NCBI GenBank assembly: GCA_014687725.1
Contig: GCA_014687725.1_4094.1
Length of the DNA stretch: 64,000 nt
Origin: a phage
Reading direction: 5' to 3' (one strand)
Every line of letters begins with the position of its first letter. Within the stretch, counting starts at the first letter, position 1. A program made the translations under genes and the position numbers. Positions 22,413 through 35,896 of the stretch are shown here, piece after piece. The notes beneath the pieces are model-generated. The model made no database searches, was not told where the DNA came from, and was given only the letters and a program-made list of their open reading frames with translations.

Positions 22413-22604
22413 ATGTTGATTTATCAAGGTGATAATATTCGTGTTATGCAGCATCCCTACTTACAAATCTTTGATGTGCAGCAGTATATGGAAGGTGATG
22501 ACCCAAGAACCTATGGTCGTAAGTATGATTACTTCACTGTAAAGCAGTGTAACAATATTAACGAAGTACGACAATTAGTTCAAGAACTTCAAAACAAAGG
22601 TTGA
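22413..22604 (+). CDS. hypothetical protein (63 aa)
   Basis: AAGGA RBS before internal ATG; IYQGD motif shared with previous ORF. Confidence 0.4.
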   Translation: MLIYQGDNIRVMQHPYLQIFDVQQYMEGDDPRTYGRKYDYFTVKQCNNINEVRQLVQELQNKG

Positions 22605-30792: not shown

Positions 30793-31047
30793 ATGTTTGC
30801 ATTGCGTAACAAAAACACTAAAGAATTATTATGTATTGATACCGTATGGGATTGTGCGGGTTCAACTACAGTTCTTGAAGAAGGAACTGGATATTGCGTG
30901 TTTGTTGTACATGATAGGAATGAACTCGAATTATTACTTGCTGAGTTCAATGCTGGTGGTAATCCTAACAGTACTGAATACCCTGAGATTATCAATCCAG
31001 CACCTCCAGGTTCATATGAAATCCTACCACTATGGGTGTTGAAATAA
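30793..31047 (+). CDS. hypothetical protein (84 aa)
   Basis: Strong AGGAG RBS. Confidence 0.5.
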   Translation: MFALRNKNTKELLCIDTVWDCAGSTTVLEEGTGYCVFVVHDRNELELLLAEFNAGGNPNSTEYPEIINPAPPGSYEILPLWVLK

Positions 31048-31427
31048 TGCGACAAATGTACAAAGTAACCGAGCTAAACAAGCGTCTGGTTAAACAATCT
31101 ATGTTTGAGGATAAAGAGTCTTACTATAACTTTAAACGTGCTGTAGAGGCTGCTATCCACATTCAGAAGCTTAAAGAACGTGGTTGTATTATTCTGGAAA
31201 ATGGTTCGGAAGTTGTAACGGATGACTTTAGTGTAGCGTTTGATGTTTCACCTGATGGGACGCTATCAATGCCCCGCTTAGGAACTGGAAACATGACTGT
31301 TTGGGTTGGCTTCACTATGGGGAATGTACCTGGTACTGTGTACGTAGATGCTGCGGAATTGAAAGACAGTTTCAAAAACTTATCTTATCTTGAACCACAA
31401 TACGCACATGAAATGAATTTATTTTGA
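31047..31427 (+). CDS. hypothetical protein (126 aa)
   Basis: Internal ATG of track ORF 31032-31427. Confidence 0.5.
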   Translation: MRQMYKVTELNKRLVKQSMFEDKESYYNFKRAVEAAIHIQKLKERGCIILENGSEVVTDDFSVAFDVSPDGTLSMPRLGTGNMTVWVGFTMGNVPGTVYVDAAELKDSFKNLSYLEPQYAHEMNLF

Positions 31428-32070: not shown

Positions 32071-32247
32071 ATGAAACTACGTACTCGTAATCGACTGATG
32101 GATGCACTGTACCATGAACAGCTTTCACTGAATGAAGTGAAGCGTCAGTTAATGTACACATATCAGTTTCCCGCTCGCATTGCAAAACAACGTGCTAAAG
32201 AATTGCTGAAAGAAGCAATCGAGTACTGGGAATCTGATTCGTACTAA
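32071..32247 (+). CDS. hypothetical protein (58 aa)
   Basis: AAGGA RBS; below track cutoff. Confidence 0.4.
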   Translation: MKLRTRNRLMDALYHEQLSLNEVKRQLMYTYQFPARIAKQRAKELLKEAIEYWESDSY

Positions 32248-32251
32248 CATT

Positions 32252-32623
32252 ATGAATATAGATTTGAAAGGTGCAACCCGAACTGTTATCCTCATTGGGG
32301 AATATGCTATCAAGATTCCAACCTTTAAAAGTTGGAAGCTATTCTTAACAGGGATGATAGCTAACCTCAATGAACGTTCGTGGATGCAGTACTCCAATCG
32401 TAGTGATAGTAGTATCTGCCCTACGTTGTGGTCATCATGTACTGGACTAGTAACTGTACAGAAACGTTGTAAGCCAGTACAACATAGGGGTTTATTTTGG
32501 GTGGAGTTGTGTGCTTTAGCATTGAATTCAGAGTTAAGTACTGACTTCTTCTATTCAGATGCGAAGCCAGAAAACTTTGGGTATCTGGGTGGTAAGTTAG
32601 TTAAACTTGATTATGGAGATTAA
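32252..32623 (+). CDS. hypothetical protein (123 aa)
   Basis: ORF in cluster. Confidence 0.45.
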   Translation: MNIDLKGATRTVILIGEYAIKIPTFKSWKLFLTGMIANLNERSWMQYSNRSDSSICPTLWSSCTGLVTVQKRCKPVQHRGLFWVELCALALNSELSTDFFYSDAKPENFGYLGGKLVKLDYGD

Positions 32624-32894: not shown

Positions 32895-32898
32895 AGAA

Positions 32899-32933
32899 AA
32901 GGGTTGACTTCGGTCAGCCCTTTTTGCTATAAT
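32899..32933 (+). terminator. terminator-promoter cassette (GGGTTGAC-TTCG-GTCAGCCC, T5, GC-TATAAT)
   Basis: Hairpin 32901-32920, T-run 32921-32925, TATAAT 32928-32933. Confidence 0.75.
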
Positions 32934-32961
32934 TATTTCATCAAGACGAGAGGATGAATAC

Positions 32962-33477
32962 ATGACACGCATTAACTTAGTACACGTTAAAGAACTTGCT
33001 GACCAACATCTGATGGCTGAATATCGTGAACTCCCACGTGTATTTGGTGCTGTACAAAAACACGTTCAAGCACGTAAGCGTGTACGTGATTTCAAAATTA
33101 ACAGTACTTATCTGTTAGGTTCAGGTCATGTGACATTCTTTTACGACAAGTTGCTGTACTTACAGAAGCGTCATATCGATATTGTTAACGAATGTTTGCG
33201 TCGTGGTATGAAGATTCAAAACACTGAAGTAAACGACATTAGCGGCTTCCCTGCTGAGTTTTGTAATGACTACGTACCAACGGAGTCAGAGATTAAAATG
33301 TCTCGTGATCGTTTGATTGAGAAGCTCCAGATGAAGCCTACGTGGTATAAGTTTACTGATGTTGAATGTCCACAGTACGTTAAAGATATGCAGAACGTAA
33401 GTAGTAAGAACGAATCTAGTACTGATATGTTCGACGAAATTGAAGAACAAATCAAAGATGAAATGAATAATTATTAA
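32962..33477 (+). CDS. denV: pyrimidine dimer DNA glycosylase / AP lyase (T4 endonuclease V family) with C-terminal extension
   Basis: N-terminus [31 protein letters not shown]...RVRDFKI...[10 protein letters not shown] closely matches recalled T4 endonuclease V; 171 aa. Confidence 0.9.
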
Positions 33478-33515
33478 AGGAAAGGGTTGACTTCGGTTAC
33501 ACAAAGGAACATAAC

Positions 33516-33710
33516 ATGTTATTAGTATATTCAAAGCGTTTCTGGATTTCTTTTATTGTACTATCGCTAATCGGCTTCGGTTTGAGTATACTCTTTTCGT
33601 GGGATGAATTGGGTACATGGTATTATGAAGTCCCGTGGTACATGAAGATAGCTCCTTGTTATGCGGCATTGTTCGTGTCATTCCTTATTGTTGTCTTCAG
33701 CGAGGATTAG
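33516..33710 (+). CDS. hypothetical small membrane protein (64 aa)
   Basis: Two hydrophobic helices. Confidence 0.4.
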   Translation: MLLVYSKRFWISFIVLSLIGFGLSILFSWDELGTWYYEVPWYMKIAPCYAALFVSFLIVVFSED

Positions 33711-33816
33711 TTGATGTAGTATGTGCTACACCAAAGTATTTGGATATTTTAGATATAAACATTGACACCTGTTCTATCTTTCTGTATTATGTACATCACC
33801 AAATGAGGAATACAAC

Positions 33817-34176
33817 ATGGCATCTTTAAGTGAAATCGCAGAATACAACCCACTAACAATCTCAACAATTCAACGTACAAAAACTTTTTATTTCCGTCCT
33901 GCTGATGGATGGAAACGTGGAATGAATGGTGACTATCGAGTACTGGAAGATTCACTAATCGAGCGTATCAACTCTGAACTACAGAAGTATGAAGGTGTTA
34001 AAGTTGTGCGTTCAACTTCTCGTTATTTTGAGTACTACATTGAGTCTTCAACTGTAAATGAAAACTCATCATTCTCGGTGGACAACACTGATATTCTTCG
34101 TAATGCTGTTGGTCTTTTATGCAGGATTGCAGAAGAAATTGGATTAACTATCACCACAATGAGTGAGTTAGAATAA
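33817..34176 (+). CDS. hypothetical protein (119 aa)
   Basis: ORF followed by terminator. Confidence 0.55.
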   Translation: MASLSEIAEYNPLTISTIQRTKTFYFRPADGWKRGMNGDYRVLEDSLIERINSELQKYEGVKVVRSTSRYFEYYIESSTVNENSSFSVDNTDILRNAVGLLCRIAEEIGLTITTMSELE

Positions 34177-34180
34177 CATA

Positions 34181-34241: not shown

Positions 34242-34475
34242 ATGAAACTATCTTTTATACGTTTAGCAGAATTCTTCGGTACTGATATTATTACTTTACA
34301 ACAAATTGCAGACAATACTTCATTAAGTACACAAGAAGTACTTGACTTGGATGTAATTAAGTGCGATAATACTTCCATCGATTACAAAGAAGGTCTTGTC
34401 GAAAAAGATAAGATTCAGGCTAAGATTAATGGTGCTGGACGGGTTCAGTACTGGAAAGGAGTTTTAAGTAAATGA
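34242..34475 (+). CDS. hypothetical protein (77 aa)
   Basis: ORF downstream of cassette. Confidence 0.45.
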   Translation: MKLSFIRLAEFFGTDIITLQQIADNTSLSTQEVLDLDVIKCDNTSIDYKEGLVEKDKIQAKINGAGRVQYWKGVLSK

Positions 34476-35896
34476 AAATTTATATTGATAAATTTGGAAC
34501 GACTTATGAATATTATGATTATACACATTATAATTCATATATACAAAAAAATCATAACCAAATGTCACCTTATTTGCATTATGAAGATTTAATGGAACTA
34601 TTCTCTAAAAATTTAAATTCTATTAAATTTATTGGTTTTAAAGATCCAACATGGAAAAGTTCACATACGCATGTGTATTTTGAATATGATAATATGGTAT
34701 ATGAACATTCAATATCAAATATCAAAACAAAATTCGCTGATCATAGATATAAACCAGGTAGAATATGTAGAACCTTGGAACAAATTATAAATGAGTCCAT
34801 TTATATATTTAAAAAATATGATAAATTTAATTTTCATAGCATTGCATCATTTAATGGAGCACGAACTATAATCAATTATACAATTGAAGGACGTGAAAGA
34901 ATATTTTCTATATCATTCAATTCATTAATAAAAGATTTTAAAGGGGGAAGCCCATGTTATTCATATGAAGAAGTAGAAAATATATCTATAAAAAAATTAA
35001 ATGAACATAATTTGAGATTTATCTCAATTAGTAAATTTAATGGTGTGTTTAGTTGTATTGAATATGAACAACCAACTCAGAAAGGAAAAAAATATGTTGA
35101 TTTTAATATATTAATCTATAATGAATGGAAAGGTAATCTACCGAATATAACTAATGAAGAGGTGAATAATCGAATTTCAGAAAAAATGAAAAAACTAAAT
35201 ATCAATGAATATGAAATTGTAGAATATAACAGTACTAGGAGCATGGTTGAATATACAGTTGATGATATTTCATATACAACTAGTTACGATAAGATTATGC
35301 ATCCAACTTGGAAAGGTAATCCAAGATATACAAAAGAAAGAATAATAAAATTGTCGAAAAAATATTGCAAGGGTAAAAAATTTCAATTTAATAAAATAAT
35401 TGGTAATGTTAAAGGAATTAATACTATCATTGAATTAGAACTTGAAAATGGTATGTTTATATATCCAAAATTTATACAATTAAAAGGAGGTTCTGACTTT
35501 AATACATCCACTGATGGTAAGATTTTAACAGAAATAATTTATCCTTTGTTCGACAATTATATCACACAAAAACGTTTTGAAAATTGTAGAAATCCTGAAA
35601 CTGGATACTTGTTGCCATATGATTTGTATGTTCCAGAATTTAATTTATTATTAGAAAAAGATGGAGTGCAACATTACAATCCAACAGCATATTTTAATAA
35701 AACATATGAATCATATTTGAAATTGAGAGAGAGAGATGAATTTAAAAACAAATATGCCATATCAAATGGTTATAATTTCATGCGAATAGCAGATTATGAA
35801 GATCATGAAAAAATATTGAAATCTTTCCTTAAACTCATTGAAGAGAATCCAGGAAAGCAAATTGTGCAGATCTATGGTGAAGTACAAATTATCTAA
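34472..35896 (+). CDS. putative PD-(D/E)xK (Vsr-like) endonuclease with N-terminal repeated modules; homing-endonuclease-like
   Basis: C-terminal YDLYVPEFNLLLEKDGVQHY ... RDEFKNKYAISNGYNFMRIADYE; N-terminal roughly 50-aa repeats; Lys/Asn-rich. Confidence 0.5.
   Translation: MKIYIDKFGTTYEYYDYTHYNSYIQKNHNQMSPYLHYEDLMELFSKNLNSIKFIGFKDPTWKSSHTHVYFEYDNMVYEHSISNIKTKFADHRYKPGRICRTLEQIINESIYIFKKYDKFNFHSIASFNGARTIINYTIEGRERIFSISFNSLIKDFKGGSPCYSYEEVENISIKKLNEHNLRFISISKFNGVFSCIEYEQPTQKGKKYVDFNILIYNEWKGNLPNITNEEVNNRISEKMKKLNINEYEIVEYNSTRSMVEYTVDDISYTTSYDKIMHPTWKGNPRYTKERIIKLSKKYCKGKKFQFNKIIGNVKGINTIIELELENGMFIYPKFIQLKGGSDFNTSTDGKILTEIIYPLFDNYITQKRFENCRNPETGYLLPYDLYVPEFNLLLEKDGVQHYNPTAYFNKTYESYLKLRERDEFKNKYAISNGYNFMRIADYEDHEKILKSFLKLIEENPGKQIVQIYGEVQII

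Follow-up and report, generated by a model that had tools for sequence, protein, structure and literature searches.

T4 endonuclease V is the textbook minimal DNA glycosylase, a protein of ∼138 amino acids (aa) that has been studied as a stand-alone enzyme and is used both as a reagent and in skin-repair formulations. In enzymes of this type the α-amino group of Thr2 is the nucleophile and Glu23 is catalytic. T4 endonuclease V is not known to have a protein partner or a regulatory appendage. For jumbo phages, a comparative review mentions only that a subset of them encodes a T4-type endonuclease V (PMC7824862). In the RaK2-like phage CBB, the gene (denV) lies in a presumed early region where RpoD-like promoters are abundant (PMC5259590). 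Promoter-early stem-loop (PeSL) cassettes have been described in T4-type phages, in whose hyperplastic regions they delimit indels (PMC2839356, PMC4122927). Full-text literature searches found no paper describing a C-terminal extension of DenV. The identification of the enzyme treated here is already public, and its tail is apparently undescribed.

The DNA analysed (hereafter the window) is a stretch of 64,000 nucleotides (nt) from a phage. It carries on the + strand a denV open reading frame (ORF), 32962..33477, that starts with ATG and encodes 171 aa. Around this gene, the window is 99.1-99.5% identical to Escherichia phages CRJP21, 121Q and SP27, which are jumbo myoviruses of ∼350 kb. Judged by its sequence, the window is that of a 121Q-like jumbo coliphage, 121Q being an Asteriusvirus of the RaK2-like group. 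The encoded protein does not differ from 121Q gp217 (100% identity), annotated ‘endonuclease V', an annotation already present in 121Q and ∼20 relatives, and the two genes differ at six synonymous sites. Gene 214, which encodes 83 aa and lies between the gp213 and gp215 homologues in 121Q (L001 2031..2282), is missing at window 32247..32252; it is missing from PBECO4 too, and the indel is of cassette scale. With gp214 missing and six synonymous differences in denV, the window comes from a different isolate and is not 121Q itself.

The original prediction, made from the sequence letters, took the gene for a DenV homolog, and database comparison bears this out. Residues 1-131 align without gaps onto residues 1-131 of T4 endonuclease V (PDB 2end, 138 aa; E=2.4e-54, ∼65% identity), the Pfam family PF03013 (Pyr_excise) matches with 55.8 bits against a gathering cutoff of 23, and PHROG 1183, ‘endonuclease V N-glycosylase UV repair enzyme', matches with E=9e-59. 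AlphaFold2 (63 sequences) modelled the core with pLDDT >90, and Foldseek placed the predicted model on 2end with a TM score of 0.94 (target-normalised) and an r.m.s.d. of 1.2 Å over 133 columns; together they predict a compact, all-alpha, single-domain fold for the core. The window protein keeps Thr2, Arg3, Arg22, Glu23, Arg26, Arg117, Lys121, Trp128 and Tyr129. Thr2 directly follows the initiator Met (MTRINL...AEYRELPR), the columns of Thr2 and Glu23 are invariant in the 63-sequence alignment, as are most of the enzyme-defining residues, and the aromatic segment W128-Y129-K130-F131 can be read directly from the protein. Homology thus shows the core to be a complete DenV domain, Thr2 nucleophile and Glu23 included, that retains the basic and aromatic residues for DNA binding, and the product is predicted to be a working cyclobutane-pyrimidine-dimer DNA glycosylase/AP lyase of the T4 endonuclease V type. 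A Pfam match to DUF6376 on residues 104-167 (E=0.006) fell under the cutoff and was disregarded.

At 171 aa, the window protein exceeds the usual size of PF03013 members (∼131-147 aa), which is a variation on the family and no ground for exclusion from it. The claim of an acidic C-terminal extension of 30-40 residues depended on the length assumed for T4 DenV. Alignment to the 138-aa 2end proved that length right, the window ORF being 33 aa longer and running 40 residues past the last position alignable to T4 (131). The acidity is there as well: the net charge is −6 in residues 144-171 and +4 in the core (pI 9.0), and the full protein comes to −2 (pI 6.2). The extent depends on the relative chosen. 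All 40 residues are unalignable to T4, but ∼12 of them form a helix (residues 132-143) common to essentially all RaK2-like DenV proteins (144-147 aa, ending ...TDVELPEYYxxMI), and the extra module therefore amounts to ∼27-28 aa beyond the form usual among these phages. The features of the locus are collected in Table 1.

Table 1. Coordinates of the features at and around denV in the window.
Feature	Position	Strand	Basis or remark
Intact terminator-promoter cassette (PeSL-like)	32896..32933	+	Fold, promoter scan, repeats
Ribosome-binding site GAGAGGA	32948..32954	+	GAGG core 32950-32953, 8 nt upstream of ATG; read from sequence
denV core, residues 1-131	32962..33354	+	2end, PF03013, AlphaFold2/Foldseek, invariant columns
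C-terminal helix, residues 132-143	33355..33390	+	Alignments of 144-147 aa relatives
Polar linker, Ser/Asn/Thr-rich, residues 144-154	33391..33423	+	Length variants, AlphaFold2
Acidic amphipathic tip helix, residues 155-171 plus stop codon	33424..33477	+	Conservation in three sublineages
Truncated cassette, 5' half AAAGGGTTGACTTCGGT	33481..33497	+	3' arm, T-run and -10 element missing
64-aa hydrophobic ORF, 121Q gp218 homologue	33516..33710	+	Two apparent membrane-spanning stretches

The anatomy of the tail was worked out by comparing DenV proteins from GenBank phages and metagenomes. The shared C-terminal helix is modelled firmly in the relative P0009 (helix 138-155, pLDDT 89-95). The linker that follows ranges from 2 residues (P0003 and P0004; 158 aa) to ∼25 (XbC2 and P0009; 179 aa). 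Length variants of 158, 167, 171, 176 and 179 aa arise by in-frame linker indels, and all of them keep the tip. Within the genus, among the seven 171-aa genes compared, differences in residues 144-158 are almost all nonsynonymous. The pLDDT of the linker is 66-69 in the window protein and <50 in the P0009 model.

The tip has the consensus ..[FY][DE][DE][IV]E.QIK[DE]EMN(NY). Its QIK[DE]EMN part is invariant in Asteriusvirus, in the P0008 lineage (tip ..DPYEDIEQQIKDEMNLE) and in the XbC2/P0009 lineage (tip ..DEYEDVERQIKEEMNNY), even though core identity to the window protein is no higher than 69-72% in the latter two lineages. Of the seven 171-aa genes, 5 agree throughout residues 159-171, and the 20-aa tip is identical in 15/19 Asteriusvirus records. 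Conserved hydrophobic positions (F/Y, I/V, I, M and the terminal Y) recur at i, i+3/4 spacing, the other positions being acidic or polar, and the helical hydrophobic moment is ∼0.5. AlphaFold2 gives the tip a pLDDT of 51-78, and in P0009 a segment below 50 parts it from the core. Such a hydrophobic stripe with 3-4 spacing, a high helical moment and a helix predicted by AlphaFold2 could let the tip pair with that of a second molecule in a short coiled coil, dimerising DenV on damaged DNA. We consider this very improbable: the helix would have only ∼4 turns, its other faces are strongly acidic so that like charges would repel, and nothing further supports the idea.

By comparison, the C-terminus of the window protein is shown to be an optional module, in which a flexible, polar linker that varies in length leads to a conserved acidic amphipathic helix of 13-17 residues at the very end. 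The invariance of QIK[DE]EMN over lineages with such divergent cores, together with the frame kept in all linker variants, indicates that the tail is translated and under selection. The tip has no synonymous variation within Asteriusvirus, so purifying selection is argued solely from the three deep lineages.

The surroundings of denV were analysed for how the gene might be expressed. In the upstream cassette, a GC stem (32901-32908/32913-32920) with a TTCG loop is followed by a run of five T residues (32921-32925), and the hairpin GGGTTGAC-TTCG-GTCAGCCC, lengthened by A/T pairs, folds with −18.9 kcal/mol (z −5.7). The promoter, TTGACT-18-TATAAT with a TG extension, scored an 11/12 match in the scan; its -35 element TTGACT (32904-32909) lies within the stem and its extended -10 element TGCTATAAT ends at 32933. 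With this arrangement, denV would be transcribed from an early promoter of the sigma-70 type that sits within a terminator hairpin. The 5' half of the cassette occurs 8 times in the window against 0.03 expected; the upstream cassette belongs to a 74-nt repeat family (D1), and full copies are found also at 34180 and 35901. The whole cassette family (GGTTGACTTCGGTCAGCC plus a T-run and a TATAAT-like element) is represented at 22595, 26019, 27637, 28697, 32898, 33481, 34180 and 35901. All eight are on the + strand between small ORFs, the copy at 33481 being truncated. A known-RNA search of the region placed STnc390 RNA over the cassette with a sub-threshold 21 bits (gathering score 50), and this candidate was set aside.

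According to the original prediction, terminator-promoter cassettes bracket denV and make it an independently expressed unit. The bracketing stands on the upstream side, where the cassette is intact. Downstream, only the 5' half of a copy is left, with neither hairpin nor T-run nor -10 element, and the segment at 33481 does not fold (−1.7 kcal/mol, z +0.65). As this copy is unable to fold or terminate, transcription of denV probably runs into the adjacent 64-aa ORF, so that the two genes are probably co-transcribed and the claim of a bracketed, independently expressed unit holds for the upstream side only. Farther along, a good promoter is reached at 33762-33790 and an intact cassette at 34180. 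At the equivalent site, ph0011, P0003 and P0008 have an intact stem-loop and T-run, of which only the ph0011 hairpin was folded computationally.

The 64-aa ORF, for which a family search gave no match, follows denV in 121Q and UE-S1 and is missing in PBECO4-type phages, and other genes take its place in ph0011, fEgEco12 and EC.P1. Farther downstream, a 474-aa ORF (34472..35896, + strand) shows by eye some five internal repeats, each of ∼45 aa, and after them a nuclease-like C-terminus; it matches PHROG 559 (HNH endonuclease) and PHROG 9084 (homing endonuclease). In relatives, HNH genes are inserted at various positions around denV, which marks the locus as a hot spot for mobile nucleases. Differences in gene content are what suggests that the cassettes may have a role in recombination.

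The distribution of the tail is patchy. Among the best 120 relatives, the conserved tip is present in 6 (P0001-P0004, P0008 and P0009), while 4 more (P0013, P0015, P0017 and P0023) have unrelated long C-terminal tails; the tail is missing from most RaK2-like and all T4-like DenV proteins. In a neighbour-joining tree of DenV cores, tip-bearing forms appear at three separate places. The first is Asteriusvirus, where long and short alleles intermingle and the cores are nearly identical, the long form being found in 19 GenBank genomes and the short form in PBECO4, slurp01, phAPEC6, Turkey3, CMSTMSU and others. The second is P0008, beside the short forms P0011 and P0012, and the third XbC2/P0009, beside the short-form Erwinia phage Kaldavass. 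The original prediction had asked about conservation of the extension in related phages, and the tip is indeed invariant in three sublineages, while being optional in each.

Boundaries of the tail could be read from pairs of relatives. Between XbC2 and Kaldavass, a clean 97-nt indel corresponds exactly to the tail; its flanks are conserved, on into the following promoter and gene. PBECO4 lacks the tail together with the half cassette and the 64-aa ORF, and its denV adjoins the promoter of the gp219 homologue. On the other hand, tailed denV is followed by genes other than gp218 in ph0011, fEgEco12, EC.P1, P0003 and P0008, which makes the tail independent of the 64-aa ORF. In a test for recent lateral transfer of the tail, codon identity of the tip between lineages (8/9) proved marginally, though not convincingly, higher than that of the core (55-65%; P=0.04-0.13). 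The tail may thus be either an old module repeatedly lost or one spread by recombinational exchange. In Salmonella phage SD-2_S15 (L012 2001..2729), an annotated 242-aa ‘endonuclease' begins with DenV residues 1-136 and continues in frame into the gp219 homologue (window 33817..34176), which it enters at about residue 14; this is either a real deletion or an assembly error, the genome being shorter than those of its relatives. Given this fusion and the unrelated long tails, denV is evidently plastic at its 3' end.

This plasticity raises the question of whether the tail is a neutral appendage, tolerated but functionless, that recombination or read-through left behind at a hyperplastic locus between cassettes. 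The tail is clearly dispensable. Its presence and absence among near-identical cores are compatible with that explanation, and so are the repeated cassettes and variable gene content on both sides (HNH insertions, gp218 and gp214 indels), the unrelated tails of P0013, P0015, P0017 and P0023, and the DenV::gp219 fusion in SD-2_S15. A functionless leftover would not, however, be expected to keep QIK.EMN invariant while the cores differ by ∼30% in protein sequence, nor to keep every linker indel in frame, and we judge a neutral appendage to be improbable.

An invariant, sequence-specific amphipathic tip, placed at the extreme C-terminus behind a linker of 2-25 residues, is the signature of a tethered docking helix. 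We therefore tentatively prefer, at somewhat less than an even chance, the explanation that the gene encodes a DenV enzyme with an optional tethered docking helix, most likely acting in trans. The tip would be a short helix that folds upon binding, most likely to another protein, for example a single-strand-binding protein, the polymerase or a downstream repair partner. As a secondary effect, the tail may neutralise the positive charge of the enzyme and so weaken non-specific DNA binding. Its mode of action would be analogous to that of the acidic tails found at the C-terminus of T4 gp32, T7 gp2.5 and E. coli SSB. In these proteins, roles of the tail in binding partners and at the protein's own DNA site coexist. 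The architecture of such tails, a variable flexible linker followed by a conserved acidic/hydrophobic C-terminal tip, is also that of the window protein. Earlier, the tail had been proposed to be a regulatory or interaction appendage; a conserved tip, a variable in-frame linker and occurrence in three sublineages fit that proposal, whereas the role itself is something we infer.

The main rival to docking in trans is an electrostatic flap acting in cis, in which the tip would mimic DNA and fold back on the basic DNA-binding groove of DenV itself. The consequences would be a lower affinity for non-specific DNA, tuned one-dimensional scanning and faster release of the product. Scanning by T4 endonuclease V is electrostatic, and the WYK[FY] segment, where the tail emerges, adjoins the DNA-binding surface of that enzyme (2end/1vas); both speak for a flap, as does a tail of −6 facing a core of +4 and lowering the pI from 9.0 to 6.2. 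However, conservation of the tip concerns specific positions (Q, I, K, M and N) more than acidity, the linker goes down to 2 residues in P0003 and P0004, and the tip is not placed with high confidence by AlphaFold2. In addition, over three comparisons of long and short sisters, no core position co-varied consistently with the presence of the tail. A cis flap is a possible but rather doubtful alternative.

Several of these observations favour action in trans: the length of the linker is unconstrained (2-25 residues), no core residue co-varies with the tail, long and short alleles share near-identical cores, and the tip is docked by AlphaFold2 without confidence (pLDDT 51-78). Against the docking reading stand the dispensability of the tail, missing as it is in most RaK2-like and all T4-like DenV proteins, and the finding by tblastn of the tip on no other protein of these phages. 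Any docking partner is putative. A clamp-binding peptide was considered, as DMFD resembles the C-termini of T4-type polymerases. It was dropped as the leading idea and is unlikely, since RaK2-like phages are reported to lack gp45, gp62 and gp59 (PMC5259590); the reported absence of the gp45 clamp removes one obvious partner.

A more specific version, in which the tip would be a dedicated recruitment peptide coupling DenV to one specific protein of phage or host (candidates being the gp32-like SSB, the replicative polymerase and an enzyme acting downstream in base-excision repair), strikes us as unlikely. If it were true, jumbo phages would have a hand-off or replication-coupled form of DenV repair, and the polymorphism of long and short alleles would amount to the presence or absence of that coupling. 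One weaker lead is the protein encoded at 31032..31427, whose ending, E.Q...EMN.[FY]-COOH, could mean a shared docking signal. This 131-aa ORF (+ strand, 121Q gp211 homologue) ends ...LEPQYAHEMNLF* and so resembles the DenV tip. Only 2/321 window ORFs, denV and this one, have EMN within their last 8 residues. The ending is kept in Asteriusvirus, including phages with short DenV, and is missing in the RaK2 homologue; it could be a shared C-terminal motif or chance.

The tip was also sought outside the window. With the 20-aa tip as query, tblastn against 50,697 phage records (E<=10) returned only the DenV of 19 Asteriusvirus genomes, at one place each, so that at this sensitivity the tip was not found on other proteins of Asteriusvirus phages. 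An IMG/VR scan with the exact back-translated tip found 121Q only, and a looser scan of IMG/VR for QIK[DE]EMN found 37 loci with no DenV besides that of 121Q. Most of these loci are chance matches, to which is added a family of T4-like portal proteins with a longer match. In the portal proteins (PF07230, E=3e-180), the portal domain ends with ...EEDMKEIDEQIKEEMNNPQY..., which agrees with the DenV tip in 10/12 aligned residues; the DNA differs at synonymous sites and the local tblastn E is only 0.5 (L023 647..2311, from an IMG/VR marine myovirus contig, and L022, L024, L028, L033, L040, L048 and L051). The resemblance is probably a convergence of acidic helices.

A conserved, optional helix that docks the enzyme or neutralises its charge would amount to a natural experiment, the long and short alleles being almost identical in their cores. 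Such allele pairs would allow the influence of non-specific DNA affinity, processive scanning or partner recruitment on the repair of dimers to be tested in vivo. The tail also illustrates how genes in the hyperplastic regions of jumbo phages, where cassettes flank them, gain and lose small modules at their 3' ends. The finding is of modest significance, the basic function of the gene being already annotated, the tail dispensable in most relatives and its mechanism inferred.

Set beside described systems, the cassettes resemble PeSLs in having a terminator hairpin that overlaps a sigma-70-type promoter, in being repeated many times between small early genes, and in sitting at indel boundaries between close relatives. 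They differ in their consensus, which is that of Asteriusvirus and not that of T4, RB49 or KVP40, and in the truncation of the copy downstream of denV in the window.

The enzyme itself is collinear with T4 endonuclease V (2end/1vas; PF03013) over residues 1-131, with the same all-alpha fold predicted, the WYK[YF] segment, and Thr2, Glu23, Arg3/22/26/117 and Lys121 in common. The T4 protein has 138 aa and a net charge of +5, compared with 171 aa and −2 in the window, and its last 7 residues, YGKAIYA, are replaced there by the 12-residue helix, the polar linker and the acidic amphipathic tip. The short-form RaK2-like DenV proteins (PBECO4, RaK2, GAP32 and CBB; 144-147 aa) share the locus and the core, being 67-95% identical over 143-145 aligned residues that include the TDVExPxYYxxM helix. 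They end just past that helix, whereas the window allele runs 28 residues further through a discrete indel at the 3' end. Finally, the tails of SSB-type proteins (the T4 gp32 A-domain, T7 gp2.5 and E. coli SSB-Ct) offer a functional analogy, pairing a flexible low-complexity linker with a short conserved acidic tip that has hydrophobic or aromatic residues at the extreme C-terminus. They have no sequence relationship to the DenV tail, which is carried here by a DNA glycosylase and has a longer tip helix of ∼17 residues.
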